Shown here: positions 20,823 to 49,882 of the stretch, piece after piece | Layout: each line of letters begins with the position of its first letter | How positions within the stretch are numbered: the first letter of the stretch is position 1 | Virus record (IMG/VR): IMGVR_UViG_3300045988_133688 | Direction: 5' to 3' (one strand) | DNA length: 49,882 nucleotides | Source of the DNA: a virus | Translations under genes and position numbers: made by a program | The notes under the pieces: model-generated | What the model saw: the letters and a program-made list of their open reading frames with translations, nothing else | Told to the model about the DNA's origin: nothing | The model's database searches: none

Positions 20823-21434
20823 TTATGATTTTCTAAATGCGTCTAAAGGATTTACATAGCACCATTCAAAGCCATAAGCTGTACGTATAGAACCTCTACA
20901 GCATGCAGTAATGTTACTTGACTTTCCATTTATAACTTCTGCAGCTTCTTTTGCTGAGTTAAACATAACAGACTCTCCTGTTTTTCTATCAATTCTATAT
21001 ATTGGTTTGCACAGGCTATAAGATTTCAAGCTTGGGTTTGTTTGAAGCAGATTTTCTATGGTTTTCTTTTCTTCACTACTTTTAGCGCATGAAAGATTTA
21101 TTTGATTGTAACCATAAGGTATATAAGATTTGTTTGCCATTATGGTTTTATATTTTAGAGCAAATAAACGTTCTGGGTCAAAGATATTACTACCTACTAG
21201 TTCTACGGTAATATATTCACTTTCTCGTACGGCCTGGCTTATAGAGCTATTGCCTGTTGGTGAAAAATCATCAAAGGCATTAAGTATAAGTGCAGTAACT
21301 GCACTTATGACTGTTCTATTAAGAACGTGTCCTACATACAGCCTATTATCTTTTTCAAATTCAACAGTAAATACAGCGTATTTAGCATTTACATTGTCAG
21401 GCATATCTACTTTGTAGTTGTCTATGAGTATCAT
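20823..21434 (-). CDS. Homing-endonuclease-like protein (GIY-YIG-like N-terminus, NUMOD1-like C-terminal DNA-binding motif)
   Basis: AVFTVEFEKDNRLYVGHVLNR resembles GIY-x9-YIG-x-R. C-terminal MFNSAKEAAEVINGKSSNITACCRGSIRTAYGFEWCY matches the HEG helix-turn-helix pattern. Confidence 0.5.
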   Translation of the reverse strand: MILIDNYKVDMPDNVNAKYAVFTVEFEKDNRLYVGHVLNRTVISAVTALILNAFDDFSPTGNSSISQAVRESEYITVELVGSNIFDPERLFALKYKTIMANKSYIPYGYNQINLSCAKSSEEKKTIENLLQTNPSLKSYSLCKPIYRIDRKTGESVMFNSAKEAAEVINGKSSNITACCRGSIRTAYGFEWCYVNPLDAFRKS

Positions 21435-28557: not shown

Positions 28558-28600
28558 AAATATAGCGGGAGAATACATTAAGTAATTTCCCGCTATTTTT
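28558..28600. terminator. Bidirectional terminator between convergent operons
   Basis: ATAGCGGGA (28562..28570) pairs with TCCCGCTAT (28588..28596). Flanked by AAA upstream and TTTT downstream. Confidence 0.75.
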
Positions 28601-29310
28601 TATTCTTCCCGTATAACGAGAGAATAACCTAAAGCTCGCTTAGTTACAATCGATATTCTCTCATCCATTTTAAGATAATTTCGTAAATGGCATATATTTA
28701 CATCTAAGCTACGTTTATTCCAGTAATTATTTTCCCCTCGCCATAGTCTTTGCATTATTACACTTGTTTGTAATACCTCGCCTTCATAAGCACAAAGTAA
28801 AGCGAGCAGTTGAGTTTCTTTGGCAGGGAGCTTTATTTCAGTATTATCTATAGCAAGTGTATCACTAAGAACGTCAAATCTGTAATTGCCCAATCGATAA
28901 GCATTTTGAATTGTTCTTGTCTTTATGCCGCATCGTTTAAGGGCTATATTTATTTTACGCACAAGTATTTCAAGATTATACGGCCTGATTATATAGTCAT
29001 CTGCACCTTCATCATAAGCTTCAATTATGAATTGGTATTTTGACAAATCAGAAACCATAATAACAGGTGTAGACTTATCCGCTTTGCGCAGAATTTTCAA
29101 TAAAGATAAGTTGCCTATACCTACAGATTTATAATGGCTTAAAATGCATAAATCATAGCCGCCATTTTTTATCTTCTGTATTATATCTTCTCTGTTTGAA
29201 GTTATAACATCAAAACCGTAAAATATAAGGTAGTCAACCATTATGCTACAGTCTTCATCTTGATAAACAAGAATTTTCGGTTGTGATATAGCATCTTTAG
29301 AAGTTTTCAT
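28600..29310 (-). CDS. Atypical OmpR/PhoB-family response regulator (degenerate receiver plus winged-helix DNA-binding domain)
   Basis: Receiver-like KILVYQDED...YDLCILSHY...TPVIMVSD...GADDYIIRPY. Trans_reg_C-like YRLGNYRFD...LPAKETQLLALL...RLW...RSLDVNICHLRNYL...IVTKRALGYSL. Confidence 0.8.
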   Translation of the reverse strand: MKTSKDAISQPKILVYQDEDCSIMVDYLIFYGFDVITSNREDIIQKIKNGGYDLCILSHYKSVGIGNLSLLKILRKADKSTPVIMVSDLSKYQFIIEAYDEGADDYIIRPYNLEILVRKINIALKRCGIKTRTIQNAYRLGNYRFDVLSDTLAIDNTEIKLPAKETQLLALLCAYEGEVLQTSVIMQRLWRGENNYWNKRSLDVNICHLRNYLKMDERISIVTKRALGYSLVIREE

Positions 29311-30340: not shown

Positions 30341-30712
30341 TTAGTTATCTTTCTTTATACCTACTACTTGTTGTTTACCTTCTTGCTCTTCTTCAGCTTG
30401 TTTTAGTTCAACATAGGTTCTATGAAAAGCTTCATCACCTATTCCTTTAATAAAGGTTCTAAGCACAGAAGGATATTCATTTGTATCTATGGTTTTATCA
30501 ACTACTTTAACATAGAGAGCCGCAAGAGCTTTAGGCCCAAATACTTTCTTTTCTTGAAGTCTCTCAATAGGACCTCTTTTGAATTGAACACCTGGATGCT
30601 CATTCATTATCTTCGTGCGAGTTAGGAATAAATCCTTAATCAAAGCCTCAATGTGCTTTTCAAACTGAGGCATTTGTACCACATCAATTACCTTTAAGTC
30701 TGCTACTTTCAT
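30341..30712 (-). CDS. Hypothetical protein (123 aa)
   Basis: ORF track. Tightly coupled to neighbours. Confidence 0.6.
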   Translation of the reverse strand: MKVADLKVIDVVQMPQFEKHIEALIKDLFLTRTKIMNEHPGVQFKRGPIERLQEKKVFGPKALAALYVKVVDKTIDTNEYPSVLRTFIKGIGDEAFHRTYVELKQAEEEQEGKQQVVGIKKDN

Positions 30713-31395
30713 TCTTCCAATTTTTTAAGCTGTTCTTTATAAAAATTTTCTTTCATATCCCAGTGCCTTTCATATATATGAAGGTCATGAGCAAAATGGT
30801 AATATGTACCTATAGGCAAACCAAGTTCATCGGCTACTAACTGTTGAAGCTTGGTCCAGCAATACTGGTCATTACAAAAGCCATAAACCAAATCATTGCT
30901 TCGCATAGTTACACACATATCAAGAGTTTCAATGCCTGGCTTAATATCAAAACCTACAGACAAAGTACAAGGAGTATCATATTTATAATCATCCTTTTCT
31001 TTGCCATCAAAGATTGTAAACCAAGCTTGACGAGTATCTTTATTCTTTTTGAGCTGTTCAATGCATTTGGCTAATTGCTTATTGCGTGTCCACTGCCAAC
31101 CATAATTTGAATTGACTATGTTATCGCCTCCATGCATTTTATCCCACATAGGAGCAAACTTCTTAATTTCTGCTACGCTTCTATCGCCTGACATATACCA
31201 GGCATATTCGCGTTCAGCATATCGTTCGCTGAATTTGCGCCATTCTGTTGTTATAACGCGTTGCTGAGGATTACGTAAATAAAAGCCAACATTGTAAACA
31301 GCCTTTGTTCCAACATTAGTTTTTACTCCTTGACCTATAATAAAACCATATAGGTCCTCAAAAGCCTCAGTTGCATTTTTATATGCTATATTCAT
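30709..31395 (-). CDS. Deoxycytidylate (dCMP) hydroxymethylase-like enzyme, thymidylate-synthase superfamily
   Basis: EREYAWY, NSNYGWQW, catalytic-Cys context DTPCTLS, and MRSNDLVYGFCND ending in Asp rather than the Asn of thymidylate synthases. Confidence 0.75.
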   Translation of the reverse strand: MNIAYKNATEAFEDLYGFIIGQGVKTNVGTKAVYNVGFYLRNPQQRVITTEWRKFSERYAEREYAWYMSGDRSVAEIKKFAPMWDKMHGGDNIVNSNYGWQWTRNKQLAKCIEQLKKNKDTRQAWFTIFDGKEKDDYKYDTPCTLSVGFDIKPGIETLDMCVTMRSNDLVYGFCNDQYCWTKLQQLVADELGLPIGTYYHFAHDLHIYERHWDMKENFYKEQLKKLEE

Positions 31396-32304: not shown

Positions 32305-32799
32305 TTAATAACTTCCAGTCGAGCCCATAGCTCCATCACCTCTTTCAGAAGAACGACTAAAAAGCTCTGCTTCAGGTACTTCTTCAAGTCCTTCATAAGA
32401 CACAGGCACAAGAATAAACTGCGCTATCTTCATACCTGGTTTAATGTGAACTTTGGCTCTACCGACATTCACAACATGAATATGTATCTCTCCCTGATAG
32501 TCTTCGTCGACAATCTTGGCACCGAGTATAACAATACTTTCAAATGCCTCTGCCTTCGGTGTTCTACCAGCTCCAAGGCATGCCCATTTAGAAGTTACTA
32601 CACCTGATTTGTCAGCGGCCATAAGCATATAGCCCTCGGGAATTTCCATCTTAATACCAGACGGTATAAGAACATCAGTTCCTGGATTGACTATAAAGCC
32701 TTTGTTACCGCCAAAATTTGGAACGAAGAAATCAATTCCAGCAGCTTTACCAGTTCCACGAACTGGAGACTTTACATTTCTTATTTTGCAGAATTTCAT
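32305..32799 (-). CDS. dut: Trimeric dUTPase-fold nucleotide pyrophosphatase
   Basis: AAGIDFF (motif I), GAKIVDEDYQGEI (motif III), RGDGAMGSTG (motif V). Motif II is DKSG instead of the usual (P/G)RSS. Confidence 0.8.
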   Translation of the reverse strand: MKFCKIRNVKSPVRGTGKAAGIDFFVPNFGGNKGFIVNPGTDVLIPSGIKMEIPEGYMLMAADKSGVVTSKWACLGAGRTPKAEAFESIVILGAKIVDEDYQGEIHIHVVNVGRAKVHIKPGMKIAQFILVPVSYEGLEEVPEAELFSRSSERGDGAMGSTGSY

Positions 32800-32800
32800 A

Positions 32801-33613
32801 TTACTTCTTTTTATTACTTGGTTTTTCTACTGGAGCTTTAGGAGCTTTTACGTCTCCGGGTTTACGCTTCAATACCCAAAGAGTATTGCGTGCCACACCA
32901 GGGAACATAGGAGCCATGATATTGGCAATGAGATTTGAGTCGTAATAACTCTTAAGAGCTTCAAACATCTTCTTTTGCCAATCATTCATGAGAGGCTTGT
33001 AGTCCTTCATTGAAGCAAATGTACCAAACTTCTTTACGATAGTAAAGTGCTGAGACAGTATAGCTTCGAGCTCCCAATGGTCAAACTCTTGTACATCAAC
33101 CCCGCGGCCATCGCCAGAGTCATAAGTGTGATTACCTGCCGCTCCTACTTCTGGGTCATAGTTAGGAGTTGAAAGGTAATAAGTAGCATTGTTATTGCCA
33201 CAGGCCTTGAAGTTCTCAAGAAATACGTGAGCATTCTGCTTTCCTACATGCTCAAGCACCTCAAAGGTACATACCTTGTCAGCATTGAATTTGCTGAAGT
33301 CCAAGTCATGTTTTACAAGGTCAGCTACATAGAAATGGGCCCAAGGCACATCCTGATACTTCTCGGCCGCTTCATTGATAGTCTTTTCGCGAATATCGAT
33401 GCCGATATACTCTTTCTGCTTGAACTTGTTTCGATACAATACTTCAAGCAAGTTAGCTGCTCCACAGCCGAAGTCTACGATTGACTCGCCAATCTTTGCT
33501 TCCTTGAGAATGTGCGTCCAACGCAAGTAATGCGCAAACTGGTCTCTGTGAAATACGTGACGCTCAAAGGCCTGGTCTGGTCTGAGGTCTGTTGTGTTAT
33601 ACACTTTCGCCAT
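32801..33613 (-). CDS. Class I SAM-dependent methyltransferase with a Lys/Pro-rich basic tail
   Basis: IVDFGCGAANLLE (motif I), IGIDI, CTFEVLEHV. C-terminus KPGDVKAPKAPVEKPSNKKK. Substrate not inferable. Confidence 0.7.
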   Translation of the reverse strand: MAKVYNTTDLRPDQAFERHVFHRDQFAHYLRWTHILKEAKIGESIVDFGCGAANLLEVLYRNKFKQKEYIGIDIREKTINEAAEKYQDVPWAHFYVADLVKHDLDFSKFNADKVCTFEVLEHVGKQNAHVFLENFKACGNNNATYYLSTPNYDPEVGAAGNHTYDSGDGRGVDVQEFDHWELEAILSQHFTIVKKFGTFASMKDYKPLMNDWQKKMFEALKSYYDSNLIANIMAPMFPGVARNTLWVLKRKPGDVKAPKAPVEKPSNKKK

Positions 33614-34265: not shown

Positions 34266-34640
34266 TTATACATTTTCTGGGTATTCCAACTGCAGCAGTT
34301 CTTTGCAGTATTGAATAACCTGAATATAATTATTATATACTGCTTGAGTTATTATTCTCCGTTGAAGTATAGTGAGCTTATTCTTAAGAATATACTTGTT
34401 TATATTCATAGATAAAGCCTTGTCATTACATCTTCTTTTGTCATCCAGCTCAATAGCTAATTGCGCATAGTGGATGCATTTCTTTATATCCTGAGCACCA
34501 TTTTTATTCTTATATCTACTGATATATTTTACTATACAGCCTTGGATAAAAGAACATCTAAGAGCAGCTATTAGCTCTATTGGCTGAAAAGCCATATCCT
34601 TGTAATGGCTTCCGCCTACTTGACTTTCTATTGCTTTCAT
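34266..34640 (-). CDS. DUF3310 / SaV-like protein
   Basis: QVGGSHYKDMAFQPIELI...GCIVKYISRYKNKNGAQDIKKCIHYAQL matches the remembered DUF3310 pattern. Confidence 0.55.
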   Translation of the reverse strand: MKAIESQVGGSHYKDMAFQPIELIAALRCSFIQGCIVKYISRYKNKNGAQDIKKCIHYAQLAIELDDKRRCNDKALSMNINKYILKNKLTILQRRIITQAVYNNYIQVIQYCKELLQLEYPENV

Positions 34641-39310: not shown

Positions 39311-41287
39311 CTAATCTTTCAAATAGAATGGTGTAGTATAACCATCAGCTCTCAATGGAAGGTCAGATGCCCACTCAGGAGGAGTGCCCATAATTCTTGC
39401 CATTTCCTCATAATATGCTTGCGCATTCTCTTCTGGAACTTCAACAAGGCATTCATCATGAATATGGCATACAGGATAATAACCTGCACTTTCGAGTTGA
39501 AGCATAGAACTACCAAGCAAATCACGAGCTATTGCCTGTACTATGTTCTCTGTTAGTTTACCACCATAAGTATCTATTTCTCCCCATTGTTTAGTCTCTT
39601 GCACAACCCCTTGATAGCATAATACTCGAGTCGGCATTGTAGACCTGCCTATTTTCTTATCTTTGAACCGTGGCCCATAATAGAATAACTTTCTACCAGA
39701 AGGCAATTGAATTGTCATAAATTCGCCATCACAGTCAAAGATTATTTTTCTGCATGTACATGAAACTGGCCTTTGATAACGAACAGCTTCTTTTGAAGCT
39801 TCATCAATTTCCTTCCACATATCCACAATTGCAGGATTTGCCATGCGCCACTTACGCACCAGGCTCATCATTTCAGTGTCTGATAAACCCATTCGCTCAC
39901 CGCCCATTCGCTTAAGTGCTCCTAATGAGCCCTCATAACCGAGTGCAAGCTCTGAGATTTTTGACTTATCGCGTAATACTGAGCCTTTGGTAATTGATGA
40001 AATAGGCACATTGAACATCTTTGCACCTGTCGCTTCATAAATCTTGCCATCGCCTCTAAATACATCCATGCGCCATTTTTCATTGGCAAGCCAAGATATA
40101 ACTCGTGCTTCAATAGCTGAGAAGTCTGCGACACTAAACACTTTGCCTTTTGGAGCAATAAGTGCTGTTCTTACAAGTTGCGAAAGAATATCTGCAACAT
40201 CATCATACATCATCTCAACTGTTTCCCAATCACGAGCTCTGATTAGCTCACGCGGTACTTCAATATGTGATATGTGGTTCTTTGATAAGTTCTGCAACTG
40301 CAATAATCTACCTGCCCATCTACCAGTTCTATTTGCGCCATAGAATTGGAATGTACCTCTAACTCTGTGGTCTTTCATAGCGCAGTTGAGCATAGCATAA
40401 TACTTCTTAATTGAAGTTTTTGATAGTTTTTTGCGTATATTGAGCAACTCAATTACATCTGGATAGTCTGCAAACTCTTTAAGCAAGTCAGGCATTGTTT
40501 CTTTTGAAAGTGACAATACAGCATTGCCTGTTTTCTTTTCTATCCATTGCCGAATTTGTACAGGCGAATTTGGATTTTCAAGACCTGTTAACTGCTGAGC
40601 ATGTTGAGTTAGTATAGAAGTATAAGTATTATCTACTGCAATAGCAGACTCTGCTAACTCCATATCTACCAAAATACCTCTATCATTGATATTCTGGTCA
40701 AGCACGTACATTTCTCGCTCAATCTTTGGAATGATATAAGACTCTAATCTATGAAATATCTCACGCTCAGCTAAGACATCATATTTATTATACTCTTTAT
40801 ACATTTCCCACTTCTCAGGAGCATGTTCTGGATAGTTGCGCGTACGCATTCCGTTAACTCTGGTTGCTTTGCATGGGCATGAAAAATACTTAATAAGTGC
40901 TTTACCTGTATCAAGCTTCTTATCTGTAAGATTAAGAGCCTTTGATACACCATCCAATGAAAGTGGTAAACCGCAATATGCGGCTTTCACTGAAGTACAA
41001 TACCACTGTTCTGCTGGGATGTTATAACCTATTCGCTTAAAACTAAGTCGCTCAAATACTGCATTATGAGCAACTTTTACACACTCTGGGTCAAGCAATG
41101 CTTCTTCAAACTCTTCAGGCATTTCTTCGCCTTGAGCTAAATCAATAATGTTAACTGGTCCATCATCTAATGCATATCCTATAATCAGTATTTCAAAGTC
41201 CGGTGACTCTATATATTTATAGGCACCAGAGTCTTTAATATCTACTGAGGAAAATGTTTCGACGTCTATGAAAAGATATTTCGCCAT
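39311..41287 (-). CDS. Family A DNA polymerase with 3'-5' exonuclease domain
   Basis: LFIDVETFS (Exo I), YNKYDV (Exo III-like), DFSAIEARV (motif A), RDKSKISELALGYEGSLGAL (motif B), CHIHDECLVE (motif C). Confidence 0.9.
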   Translation of the reverse strand: MAKYLFIDVETFSSVDIKDSGAYKYIESPDFEILIIGYALDDGPVNIIDLAQGEEMPEEFEEALLDPECVKVAHNAVFERLSFKRIGYNIPAEQWYCTSVKAAYCGLPLSLDGVSKALNLTDKKLDTGKALIKYFSCPCKATRVNGMRTRNYPEHAPEKWEMYKEYNKYDVLAEREIFHRLESYIIPKIEREMYVLDQNINDRGILVDMELAESAIAVDNTYTSILTQHAQQLTGLENPNSPVQIRQWIEKKTGNAVLSLSKETMPDLLKEFADYPDVIELLNIRKKLSKTSIKKYYAMLNCAMKDHRVRGTFQFYGANRTGRWAGRLLQLQNLSKNHISHIEVPRELIRARDWETVEMMYDDVADILSQLVRTALIAPKGKVFSVADFSAIEARVISWLANEKWRMDVFRGDGKIYEATGAKMFNVPISSITKGSVLRDKSKISELALGYEGSLGALKRMGGERMGLSDTEMMSLVRKWRMANPAIVDMWKEIDEASKEAVRYQRPVSCTCRKIIFDCDGEFMTIQLPSGRKLFYYGPRFKDKKIGRSTMPTRVLCYQGVVQETKQWGEIDTYGGKLTENIVQAIARDLLGSSMLQLESAGYYPVCHIHDECLVEVPEENAQAYYEEMARIMGTPPEWASDLPLRADGYTTPFYLKD

Positions 41288-41316
41288 TATTTCTTAATTT
41301 GATATTATAAAATTAG

Positions 41317-41397
41317 GAGTATAGGCGGGACTCGAACCCGCATAACAGGCACACAAACCAATGGCGCTCTGTGGTTTTACCATTAAACTACTATACT
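41317..41397 (-). tRNA. tRNA-like gene with a non-canonical anticodon arm (isotype undetermined)
   Basis: Minus strand: acceptor AGTATAG/CTATACT, D arm GTTT-AATGGTA-AAAC, T arm GCGGG-TTCGAGT-CCCGC. The middle 31 nt folds as ACAG-A-GCGC / 11-nt loop CATTGGTTTGT / GTGC-CTGT, not as a 5-bp stem with a 7-nt loop. Confidence 0.5.
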
Positions 41398-41416: not shown

Positions 41417-41965
41417 TTACATCAGCTCGTCGTCCCATTCATTCTCGCCTCCGAAGTCCTCTTCAGCAGTAGAACCACCGGCCAACATCTCACCGTCTTC
41501 GAGCTTCTGAAGATTGTTCAATCCAGCTGCAATGCCTTTGGATGAAACATTGAAGGCATAGAAGTTGATTGATGCACGGCCATAACAACCACTGTAGAAC
41601 TCCTCTTTCTCCATGATAGGATTGAGGTCTTTGTCCACGATGCTTGGCTTGCGCTGGCTATTGGCATTGATGAAGTACATGCCTTCGAATGCTGGGTCGT
41701 CGCCACGCTCATCGTCGCCATCACGCAGAGGCAACTTGAGGTTTGAAGGTATCTTGCCATTCTTGTCTGCGAGCTTGGCTTTACCTGCCTGTTTAGCTGC
41801 CTCGATAGCCTTGTTAATCTTATCAAGGGTCTTTGCATCATCTTTCGGGATAAGAATGCAGATATTGTACTTAGGTGTATCGCCCTCGTTCATAGCCGTA
41901 GGCTCGAACACGTTCACGTAGCAAAATCTTACTTTGCCGGTTACAACTTTTGTTGAATTTTCCAT
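41417..41965 (-). CDS. ssDNA-binding protein (DUF2815-like)
   Basis: N-terminal VTGKVRFCYVNVFEP...KYNICILIPKDD. Acidic C-terminal tail DFGGENEWDDELM. Sits next to the polymerase and nuclease genes. Confidence 0.65.
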   Translation of the reverse strand: MENSTKVVTGKVRFCYVNVFEPTAMNEGDTPKYNICILIPKDDAKTLDKINKAIEAAKQAGKAKLADKNGKIPSNLKLPLRDGDDERGDDPAFEGMYFINANSQRKPSIVDKDLNPIMEKEEFYSGCYGRASINFYAFNVSSKGIAAGLNNLQKLEDGEMLAGGSTAEEDFGGENEWDDELM

Positions 41966-48733: not shown

Positions 48734-49882
48734 TTATAAGCCCTGTAAGAAGTTTTCATATATATATGACATTCTTTCATGGCCAAGAGCTGTTAGATGT
48801 ACGGCGTCGATGAAATAATCAGCCTGTTCTGCACAATCTTTCCTTAATCCAGATTTAGCTGTACCATCTATACACTGTATATGATAAAATTCACATCTTT
48901 CTTTTATCCATGCGGCTCTAGGCTTAAGAGATGTTCCACCGAAGTAATAAGGCTCTATAAATCCTATTTTAGCTTTAGGATAATTACTTTGCAATCCTTT
49001 CACAAGCACATTGAATGCTCCTTTGAAAGTTGTTGTATCTTCACTGTTATCATCTATTTCTGCGTTAAAGCCATCATTATACCCGATTTGAACTAGTATG
49101 TAATCAGAATTTTCAGCTATTTCTGCATAAGTATCAACAAGTGATGTTTCTGCTCCTGTGATTAGTTTACGTCCATTTATTGCATAGTTATTTACAGTCA
49201 TTCCATTTCTGTTTGCTATCAGGGCCCCATAAGTGTTCTGTTTTCCTATAGAATGGCCAGCGGCTTCACTATCTCCAGTTATAGATAATATTTTTCCATT
49301 CAGATAATTCGGCTTTGCTGATTTTATATTGTTTTGTACTATTTCTTCTATATATTCTTCTGTCAAAGGAATACTTTGTATGCCTATGACGCTGATAACT
49401 TTTTGTACAACTAGTTTTTGAACATACTTTACAGTATCACCGACTTTAGCTGTAGCTACAGCTGAAATACCAACTGCATATTGAACATTACTGAAATTAC
49501 CGTTTGAGCAATATTTATCATTACCTAGTATAAACAGAGCATTTCCTGCTTTTAACCTTAAGTTCAAGTCAGATACAGTGTTTTCTCCTATTATTGCATC
49601 AGGAATATCTAAAATGGATAGCACAACAAATGATTTAGCATCTGTGTTTTCATTACCACATACTACTATTTTATTATTGGTCTTTACTTTTCCCGATACA
49701 TATTTAATTTCATTTATAGTAACGGCGGTATCAAATATCATGCCGAAATATGTGCTTTCATTCAATTGAGTTTTTTCTAAATTAGAAGCATTAAACTCTG
49801 ATTGTATGCCAGCATTACCGACTTGTTCTTCCAGACTATCTATTGATGCTTCCAGACTATCTATTGATGCTTCCAGACTATC
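48734..49882 (-). CDS. Tail fibre, C-terminal part with SGNH/GDSL esterase domain (continuation of the 1..1161 gene)
   Basis: The frame of ORF 48734..49765 stays open to nt 49882 (DSLEASIDSLEASIDSLEEQVGNAGIQ...), 39 codons and in phase with nt 1. SGNH blocks: ITGDSEAAGHS (I), AINGRKL (II), VQIGYNDG (III), DAVHLTALGH (V). Confidence 0.8.
   Translation of the reverse strand, partial: DSLEASIDSLEASIDSLEEQVGNAGIQSEFNASNLEKTQLNESTYFGMIFDTAVTINEIKYVSGKVKTNNKIVVCGNENTDAKSFVVLSILDIPDAIIGENTVSDLNLRLKAGNALFILGNDKYCSNGNFSNVQYAVGISAVATAKVGDTVKYVQKLVVQKVISVIGIQSIPLTEEYIEEIVQNNIKSAKPNYLNGKILSITGDSEAAGHSIGKQNTYGALIANRNGMTVNNYAINGRKLITGAETSLVDTYAEIAENSDYILVQIGYNDGFNAEIDDNSEDTTTFKGAFNVLVKGLQSNYPKAKIGFIEPYYFGGTSLKPRAAWIKERCEFYHIQCIDGTAKSGLRKDCAEQADYFIDAVHLTALGHERMSYIYENFLQGL
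49831..49882. repeat. Right-end copy of the 21-bp tandem repeat (49835..49855, 49856..49876, partial 49877..49882)
   Basis: Nt 49835..49882 are identical to nt 1..48. Confidence 0.95.

Follow-up and report, generated by a model that had tools for sequence, protein, structure and literature searches.

A predicted T4-type dCMP hydroxymethylase and a linked Hen1-like methyltransferase outline a candidate cytosine-tailoring pathway in a gut phage

Does a phage whose thymidylate synthase (TS) homolog appears to read cytosine build a modified genome, and what final form might its base take? The question matters because DNA modification decides whether a phage escapes restriction, CRISPR and type IV defence, and distorts sequencing, cloning and metagenomic recovery. 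It is raised by IMG/VR record IMGVR_UViG_3300045988_133688, a stretch of 49,882 nucleotides (hereafter the window) that encodes a TS-fold enzyme and, in the same gene cluster, a class-I S-adenosylmethionine (SAM) methyltransferase (Table 1). A first-pass annotation of the window likened the former to T4 gp42, the deoxycytidine monophosphate (dCMP) hydroxymethylase, and predicted modified cytosine in virion DNA, with a final base that could be new. A hydroxymethylase of this kind is already known, and orthologues in isolates of the BF486P2 group are annotated as deoxycytidylate 5-hydroxymethyltransferase; the new part, a candidate, is the coupling of the methyltransferase to it.

The TS-fold gene is a genuine open reading frame (ORF) of 228 amino acids (aa), running from ATG to TGA on the minus strand, which the first-pass annotation had not specified; the plus-strand frame is full of stops. 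Its product matches Pfam PF00303 (E = 2e-24; score 86.6 bits, cutoff 24.3) and PHROG family phrog_160 (1.2e-45), and all the motifs quoted earlier were found, namely EREYAWY at residue 61, NSNYGWQW at 95, DTPCTLS at 140 and MRSNDLVYGFCND at 164. No other TS-family gene occurs in the window genome. The best sequence matches in the PDB were MilA CMP hydroxymethylase (5e-16) and T4 dCMP hydroxymethylase (1.4e-15), with all true ThyA proteins ranking lower, and every NCBIfam ThyA equivalog model scored 4- to 15-fold below its cutoff (best 73.7 bits against 327). An AlphaFold model built from a 67-sequence alignment (predicted local distance difference test score, pLDDT = 89.8) superposed in Foldseek on MilA with a template modelling (TM) score of 0.81–0.85, on HY126 AfhB with 0.77–0.79 and on T4 dCMP hydroxymethylase with 0.70–0.75; ThyA was matched as well, within the overall range of 0.70–0.85. 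The predicted fold is thus that of the TS family; the fold search alone does not separate its sub-types, whereas the residue code does.

That code reads E63, Y98, R122, D140, C143, T144, R165, S166, D168 and D176. The catalytic nucleophile C143 (T4 C148) and the general base E63 (T4 E60) are invariant, as are Y98, R122, D140, S166, D168 and D176, in 120/120 family clusters (65–96% identity). By sequence alignment together with the overall fold match, D176 occupies the column of T4 D179 and E. coli N177. The T4 string quoted in the first-pass annotation was correct here, the alignment showing NMRSNDVVFGFRND-YAW; the aligned column is also where the D179N mutant entry 6l18 departs from it. The step from this Asp to 5-hydroxymethyl-dCMP held up in its conclusion but not in its argument, since the Asp alone shows a cytosine substrate only and further residues are needed to define the product. 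Asp-type TS homologs also include dCMP methylases (PMC8670742), the CMP hydroxymethylase MilA (PMC5175136) and the flavin-dependent 5-hydroxy-dCMP synthases RB69 gp48, DLP3 gp80 and HY126 AfhB (PMC13326640). Among the further residues, a bulky hydrophobic side chain at E. coli position 143 goes with a methyl product and Asp or Glu with a hydroxymethyl product, while Asn at position 169 (D169N) marks 5-hydroxylases (PMC13326640). Reading position 143 directly as the third residue before the catalytic Cys (Cys-3) gives D140, the position of E. coli L143 and T4 D145; D168, the equivalent of E. coli Asp169, is retained. Lys/Ala at positions 126′/167 select ribose and Arg/Ser deoxyribose (PMC5175136); MilA has Lys133′/Ala176, and the present enzyme has Arg122 and Ser166. 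We therefore describe it as D/D/D, that is, Asp at E. coli positions 143, 169 and 177, where canonical ThyA reads L/D/N.

The resemblance to T4 gp42 (EC 2.1.2.8; PDB 1B49, 1B5D and 1B5E) extends across the TS fold, the catalytic Cys, the general-base Glu and the Tyr, the three Asp positions and the Ser/Arg determinants, and includes a near-identical motif, MRSND(V/L)V(F/Y)GF(R/C)ND, and a truncated C-terminus: 23 aa follow the HxY motif, compared with 26 in T4 gp42 and 58 in E. coli ThyA. The two proteins differ in length (228 against 246 aa), share about 24% identity, and R127′ is Gln in most members of the window enzyme's family. Judged from these residues, the enzyme is very probably a T4-type 5-hydroxymethyl-dCMP synthase catalysing the first step of a pathway. 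The earlier prediction of modified cytosine in virion DNA gains support from the same diagnostic positions, and we regard it as likely to a scarcely lesser degree.

What may follow that first step is indicated by the company the methyltransferase gene keeps. The IMG/VR linkage scan used a divergent methyltransferase as its lead, because scans that return relatives 86–98% identical do not provide independent evidence. The 80 loci obtained carry methyltransferases 43–78% identical to the lead query and about 30–35% identical to that of the window. A same-strand TS-family ORF was present in 69 of them, at a median gap of 1.3 kb; the remaining 11 end within 1.6 kb downstream of the methyltransferase and are uninformative, so that linkage was found in 69/69 informative loci. 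Sixty-three of these TS ORFs read D/D/D, and D169 together with D177 was seen in 67 of the 68 that could be read. Bacterial and archaeal assemblies yielded nine true members of the methyltransferase family, all on phage-sized contigs of metagenome-assembled genomes, with a D/D/D TS homolog within 2.2 kb in 7/7 informative loci. One locus (L259) provides an internal control: the Asp-type TS gene lies 1.2 kb from the methyltransferase and a canonical L/D/N ThyA gene 8 kb away. In an apparent exception (L256) the TS gene is interrupted by masked N's. All five phage database records with a methyltransferase homologue (AXL3 twice, PW916 and two Manatee Spring genomes) were linked as well, in the order methyltransferase, nucleoside triphosphate (NTP) pyrophosphatase, in some cases a kinase, D/D/D TS homolog and dCMP deaminase. 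As a baseline, a detectable homologue of the window TS protein occurs in 1,965 of 50,697 phage records (3.9%). The converse fails, since the TS family also occurs without the methyltransferase (for example in L007), and such one-way linkage is expected if the methyltransferase acts downstream of the hydroxymethylase product. We conclude from these patterns that the methyltransferase is likely to be functionally coupled to the cytosine-modification pathway.

Stenotrophomonas phage AXL3 (with its ~90% identical relative PW916) carries in gp27–gp31 a methyltransferase of the same family (26–30% identity), followed by genes for an NTP pyrophosphatase, for a kinase and for a D/D/D TS homolog. It differs in host phylum, GC content (63%) and virion genes, and its cluster uses a MazG/PRA-PH-type NTP pyrophosphatase and a P-loop kinase and adds dCMP deaminase and ThyX. 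The TS homolog of PW916 (L264, 3280–4098) is annotated as ‘deoxyuridylate hydroxymethyltransferase’ and that of AXL3 (L009, 9304–10113) as ‘thymidylate synthase’. From their D/D/D code both are probably misannotated dCMP hydroxymethylases, AXL3 having a separate ThyX for dTMP.

The methyltransferase family comprises at least 132 representatives at 50% identity (E ≤ 1e-30) from gut, freshwater, soil and marine phages. Its Pfam matches are generic (Methyltransf_11, 12, 23, 25 and 31), and Pfam gave no match to a DNA-base methyltransferase family with DPPY/PC-type motifs. A Dam-like role was considered and rejected because the genome contains no GATC, a finding that speaks against self-protection of the Dam type. 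When a family profile was compared with the PDB, the top five matches were all Hen1/HEN1 (8e-11 to 2e-9), and human HENMT1 was also detected. The invariant motifs of the family are HRD..H..RW, GCG, E118-V-x-E121-H122, STP, N161-H162 and RN..W; GCG and E118/E121/H122 do not vary over 15 sequences of 27–88% identity. E-V-x-E-H and STPN align to CLEVIEH of HEN1 and to EVIEH/STPN of bacterial Hen1. In Hen1 the E-x-x-E-H residues contribute three out of four hydroxyl-activating metal ligands, and the fourth is a His in the RH.DH.FEW motif. The family has an invariant N161-H162 downstream of STPN that might supply this ligand, and the HMMER alignments end before the fourth-ligand motif.

Hen1/HEN1 proteins (PDB 3HTX and 3JWG–3JWJ) are thus the closest solved relatives, sharing GCG, E-V-x-E-H and STPN(Y). 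Unlike them, the window methyltransferase is a single-domain protein lacking the Hen1 N-terminal and double-stranded RNA-binding domains; no Pnkp-like partner appeared in Pfam and PHROG scans of the window ORFs; two motifs, HRD..H..RW at the N-terminus and AP..P..RN..W at the C-terminus, are particular to the family; and it is always linked to dCMP-hydroxymethylase-type genes. Judged by sequence, the protein would work like Hen1 at most and is not a Hen1 orthologue. No recognisable fusion partner was found in the long members of the family.

The C-terminus of the family provides a further clue. In 60 of 120 gut-clade homologues the methyltransferase ends in (D/E)DD(D/E)L(F/M), mimicking the tail of the phage single-stranded DNA-binding protein (SSB), whereas the 80 environmental-clade sequences have no acidic tail. 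The acidic tails of T7 gp2.5 and bacterial SSB serve in docking to the replisome. The SSB-like tail suggests that many of these methyltransferases may dock to the replisome and act on nascent DNA. The window itself carries a deletion at 32818–32828, where 991 bp present in the sister contigs L003 and L004 are missing between 11-bp microhomologies (AGAAAAACCAA); blastn against L003 splits into two blocks, of 99.9% and 97.8% identity, and leaves L003 3578–4567 unaligned. Three small ORFs of 152, 128 and 46 aa were removed, the first of them nucleotidyltransferase-like and homologous to an ORF beside the HMUDK gene of L006. Both forms circulate, the nucleotidyltransferase-like ORF being kept in 42 of 80 close relatives.

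Syntenic relatives show what else can stand in the place of the methyltransferase. The slot between the DUF3310/DUF6378 genes and dut is filled by one of three cassettes: the Hen1-like methyltransferase (window, L002–L005, L250), a carbamoyltransferase with a P-loop kinase (BF486P2, L247, L248), or a full-length HMUDK_hel protein (L006 at 1.4e-48; L249). HMUDK_hel is described in Pfam as the helical domain of 5-hydroxymethylpyrimidine DNA kinases. HMUDK-type kinases phosphorylate the 5-CH2OH group of hydroxymethylpyrimidines in DNA. The carbamoyltransferase of BF486P2 (BF486P2_00025; PF16861 at 1.3e-34, PF02543 at 8.8e-13) is annotated merely as hypothetical, and its family has been shown experimentally to convert 5-hydroxymethylcytosine (5hmC) to 5-carbamoyloxymethylcytosine (PMC8670742). 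As the families of two slot occupants act on the hydroxymethyl OH and the third occupant resembles an O-methyltransferase, the simplest reading is O-methylation of 5hmC.

The isolates with the carbamoyltransferase cassette, Bacteroides fragilis phages BF486P2/P3, BF494P1 and BF503P1/2/4 (OP172667-72), share with the window a syntenic replication and nucleotide module, including a TS orthologue at 62% identity. Together with the 5hmC carbamoyltransferase system found by MetaGPA (eLife 2021, PMC8670742) they are among the closest known systems. They have a tailoring slot just upstream of dut; theirs holds the carbamoyltransferase, the P-loop kinase and a second D/D/D TS homolog, that of the window DUF6378 and the methyltransferase, so a different final base is expected. 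BF486P2 (L001/L266; 19770–20531 and 22603–23283 of the record) and L247 each encode two D/D/D TS homologues, an ‘LPYD’-type and a ‘GFCND’-type, that are about 26% identical.

Taken together, these data outline a three-step pathway, which we consider likely as a whole and the best explanation of the locus; through it the phage would replace or supplement its cytosine with a C5-modified derivative. In the first step the enzyme would bind dCMP, with Asp176 reading cytosine N3/N4 and Ser166/Arg122 favouring deoxyribose. Cys143 would attack C6, methylene-tetrahydrofolate would supply the methylene, and the exocyclic methylene would be hydrated rather than reduced, given Asp140 at the water-excluding Leu143 position and the short C-terminal tail, to give 5-hydroxymethyl-dCMP. 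In the second, the dUTPase-fold NTPase may supply dCMP and deplete dCTP, while a phage or host kinase and host NDP kinase would yield 5-hydroxymethyl-dCTP for incorporation by the family-A polymerase (PolA), which would need to accept the modified dCTP analogue. In the third, to which linkage and homology point, the methyltransferase would tailor the hydroxymethyl group, most simply by metal-assisted O-methylation, probably on DNA at the replication fork, forming 5-methoxymethylcytosine and shielding G/C-containing restriction sites.

We propose only tentatively that the final product is this methyl ether. That the Hen1-like family caps phage 5hmC in this way, and that the modification of AXL3 is the same base, is offered as an equally tentative extension. 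The earlier suggestion of a possibly new final base gains weight, as no candidate tailoring enzyme other than the methyltransferase was found and its linkage is near-obligate; this turns the open question of the base into a specific hypothesis. Were that hypothesis true, 5-methoxymethylcytosine would be an undescribed DNA base and a third tailoring of 5hmC besides glycosylation and carbamoylation, 5hmC O-methylation in DNA would be a new activity usable as a 5hmC-labelling or blocking reagent, and many of the methyltransferases would be docked to the replisome by their SSB-like acidic tail. With enzymes of the methyl, carbamoyl and phosphate-activating kinds replacing one another between sister phages, the slot offers a compact example of arms-race diversification.

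Restriction data bear on whether cytosines are protected. AXL3 DNA withstands 35/35 tested enzymes whose sites contain G or C, the only enzymes to cut it being two with A/T-only sites, and its modified base was never identified (PMC7504290); this resistance has been chemically unexplained since 2020. In the window, the observed/expected (O/E) ratios of G/C palindromes are close to one (CCGG 0.95, CGCG 1.02, GCGC 0.89, GGCC 0.97; 6-mers with 4–6 G/C 0.98), while A/T-only 6-mers are avoided (O/E 0.74), AATATT, ATTAAT and TTTAAA being nearly purged; CTAG (0.63) and CATG (0.72) are depleted. BF486P2, with a B. fragilis host and a D/D/D TS homolog, likewise does not avoid G/C-rich 6-mers (1.11), in contrast to the B. 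fragilis phage B40-8, with its canonical L/D/N ThyA (CGCG 0.09, GGCC 0.08, G/C-rich 6-mers 0.57). Across these three genomes the palindrome pattern is suggestive and in line with protected cytosines. BF486P2 also purges GATC (7/115) and CTAG (0/77), and B40-8, which encodes its own Dam, keeps GATC.

Several observations weigh against the proposed pathway. GATC is found 0 times against ~101 expected in the window (1–49882), and CATATG, GATATC and GAATTC have almost disappeared, so that protection evidently does not extend to every site containing C; the palindrome comparison covers three genomes only. For position 143 the source says no more than that it ‘appears to correlate’ with the type of product (PMC13326640), and the residue code is correlative. 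The motifs of the dUTPase-fold protein are near-canonical, and it could simply be a dUTPase. Neither a P-loop dNMP kinase nor a MazG-type dCTPase is recognisable in the window, unlike in T4, AXL3 and BF486P2, which leaves the flux to the triphosphate and complete replacement of cytosine uncertain. Many of the linked loci may share ancestry, and independent events are then fewer than the counts suggest, although at least five distinct gene orders and genome types are covered. As for the methyltransferase, its likeness to Hen1 is confined to the SAM-binding core plus E-x-x-E-H/STPN, with the fourth metal ligand unaligned, and in the window the deletion joined ‘...VEKP’ to ‘SNKKK’, which stands in place of the C-terminal ‘TLFDDDLM’, so that the acidic tail was lost. 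Finally, the literature searched holds no precedent for O-methylation of 5hmC, and a 2026 review-level introduction lists none; it returned nothing relevant on Hen1 with phage 5hmC, on methoxymethyl-cytosine or -deoxycytidine in phage or on BF486P2, and the PW916 paper contains no DNA-modification data.

In the foremost alternative the hydroxymethylase is correctly assigned and the methyltransferase stands outside the pathway as a Hen1-type RNA 2′-O- or small-molecule methyltransferase, leaving plain, possibly partial, 5hmC. The only family-level likeness of the protein is indeed to RNA 3′-end 2′-O-methyltransferases; it matches no known DNA-modifying methyltransferase family, the tail-less 270-aa form of the window persists on several contigs of the lineage, and TS homologs of the same family occur without it, as in L007. 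Against this stand its place next to a D/D/D TS homolog, seen at all informative loci despite widely differing genome architectures, its exchange within one slot with two families of enzymes directed at the hydroxyls of 5-hydroxymethylpyrimidines, the missing Pnkp partner and Hen1 N-terminal domain, and the SSB-like tails of half the gut-clade homologs. We consider this alternative unlikely, while it keeps more credibility than any other.

The remaining alternatives concern the TS homolog. It would be quite improbable for it to be an Xp12-type dCMP methyltransferase producing a 5-methylcytosine genome, even though Asp at N177 is, according to a passage of PMC8670742 citing Liu & Santi and Hardy & Nalivaika, the very substitution by which a thymidylate synthase becomes a dCMP methylase, and the position-143 rule is only correlative (PMC13326640). 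Cys-3 is Asp in all 120 clusters, as in T4 gp42 and MilA, and not bulky and hydrophobic; the protein, like T4 gp42, lacks the C-terminal folate-closing segment and finds its best matches among hydroxymethylases; and sister phages pair the enzyme with carbamoyltransferase or HMUDK, which need a hydroxymethyl group. A flavin-dependent 5-hydroxy-dCMP synthase of the RB69 gp48/DLP3 gp80/HY126 AfhB type, leading to 5-hydroxycytosine, would likewise combine N177D with an acidic residue at 143, and the model superposes on AfhB about as well as on the T4 enzyme; the diagnostic D169N is absent from all 120 clusters, however, and no arabinose or glycosyl-transfer genes were found in the window ORFs scanned, which makes this reading slightly less probable still. 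An ordinary or back-up thymidylate synthase (the automatic annotation of PHROGs and the Joint Genome Institute, JGI) or a CMP hydroxymethylase unrelated to DNA (MilA being the closest structure) can practically be dismissed given Asp for Asn177, the ThyA equivalog scores, Arg122/Ser166 in place of MilA Lys133/Ala176, as in deoxy-specific enzymes, and the location of the gene inside a DNA-replication operon.

Table 1 Genes and other features of the window considered in this analysis
Feature	Position	Strand	Basis
TS-fold enzyme, T4-type dCMP hydroxymethylase residue code	30709..31395	-	PF00303 2e-24; residue table
Hen1-like class-I SAM methyltransferase, 270 aa, candidate 5-hydroxymethyl tailoring	32801..33613	-	generic Pfam methyltransferase; PDB profile; linkage
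dUTPase-fold NTP pyrophosphatase, candidate dCTPase/dUTPase	32305..32799	-	PF00692 3e-16, weak dCTP-deaminase-like match
DUF6378 protein, 96 aa	33628..33918	-	PF19905 2.2e-11
DUF3310 protein, 124 aa, weak candidate 5-hydroxymethyl-dCMP kinase	34266..34640	-	PF11753 1.4e-8; phrog_236 ‘nucleotide kinase’ 1.8e-17
Family-A DNA polymerase	39311..41287	-	phrog_17 5e-135
gp2.5-type ssDNA-binding protein, C-terminus ...EWDDELM	41417..41965	-	phrog_112 1.2e-68
tRNA gene, 82 nt	41316..41397	-	Rfam RF00005, 46.4 bits
OmpR-type response regulator	28600..29310	-	receiver domain + winged-helix Trans_reg_C
Likely HNH homing endonuclease	20823..21434	-	I-HmuI-type NUMOD-like domain
GDSL-lipase-like gene	48734..49741		

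The neighbouring genes named in the first-pass annotation, a dUTPase fold, a SAM methyltransferase, DUF6378 and DUF3310, are all where it placed them, on the minus strand; its ‘MazG-like’ label for the DUF6378 protein could not be substantiated. As for the pathway it sketched from them, the dUTPase-fold and methyltransferase genes are linked to the enzyme, while the kinase role of DUF3310 comes down to a shared domain.

The dUTPase-fold gene lies immediately downstream of the methyltransferase gene and its product has the motifs AGIDF, DKSG, IVDEDYQGE, KIAQF and RGDGAMGSTG. Relative to E. coli Dut, 13 aa are inserted between motifs 2 and 3, and motif 2 reads DKSG for PRSG; in motif 5 Met replaces the uracil-stacking Phe, which the BF486P2 orthologue keeps. 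In AXL3, PW916, MW202510 and MW202621 the same place beside the methyltransferase is taken by a PRA-PH/MazG-type NTP pyrophosphatase, a member of the family that includes the T4 dCTPase. The shared position suggests non-orthologous replacement and a dCTPase/dUTPase role. MetaGPA detected an enrichment of the PRA-PH/MazG-type family on modified contigs (PMC8670742).

The DUF6378 protein gave no MazG or PRA-PH match in Pfam even at E ≤ 10 and no relative in the PDB, and its reading as a MazG-like protein was dropped. Its gene precedes the methyltransferase cassette (window, L250) or the HMUDK cassette (L006, L249) and does not accompany the carbamoyltransferase cassette. The T7 gp1.7 kinase contains DUF3310 (4.5e-23), and a BLASTP comparison of gp1.7 with the window DUF3310 protein found no similarity; the two share the domain only, and the protein is at most a weak candidate for a T7 gp1.7-type kinase. 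Relative to T4, the window has a dUTPase-fold NTPase where T4 has the MazG-type gp56, it has neither a gp1-type P-loop kinase nor glucosyltransferases, and its genome is siphovirus- or podovirus-sized with a T7-like rather than T4-like replisome. In line with the first-pass annotation, no glycosyltransferase was found in the ORFs scanned, a set without the large structural ORFs at 1–16.9 kb.

With its ~50 kb the window probably represents an entire genome, that of a Bacteroides-type gut phage. Both ends (1–55 and 49833–49882) share a 21-bp tandem repeat (ACTATCTATTGATGCTTCCAG), with at least two copies at each, which indicates a circular or complete assembly opened within the repeat, just beyond the GDSL-lipase-like gene. 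Megablast of 10 kb of the window against the 50,697 phage records found no nucleotide-level relative; at the protein level the window is syntenic, with 40–75% aa identity, with six B. fragilis phage isolates (BF486P2 and relatives). The exact 228-aa protein occurs on 17 metagenomic contigs, one of them 49,780 bp long. The lineage is abundant in human-gut metagenomes (>400 IMG/VR loci), and individual clusters of its proteins at 90% identity count hundreds to thousands of members; a probable cytosine modification in it is relevant to gut virome work and to Bacteroides phage engineering.

The TS-homolog gene, whose start and stop codons overlap neighbouring ORFs, lies within a long minus-strand DNA-replication operon that also encodes a family-A polymerase, a primase-helicase, an SNF2 helicase, a VRR-NUC nuclease, a gp2.5-type SSB and an exonuclease. 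Between the polymerase and SSB genes lies a tRNA gene for which ARAGORN gives no assignment; its four-base ‘ccat’ anticodon amounts to an oversized anticodon loop, and possible readings are a Met/Ile-type tRNA whose loop is odd, a suppressor of frameshifts or a decoy. An OmpR-type response regulator is kept at the end of the same operon in the relatives L006, L007, L249 and L250; its phospho-acceptor Asp is replaced by Ser and its conserved Lys by Arg, so it probably acts independently of phosphorylation. The likely homing endonuclease of the window is encoded at the edge of the structural module, and in L256 the kinase and TS genes of the modification cluster are separated by an inserted HNH endonuclease ORF.

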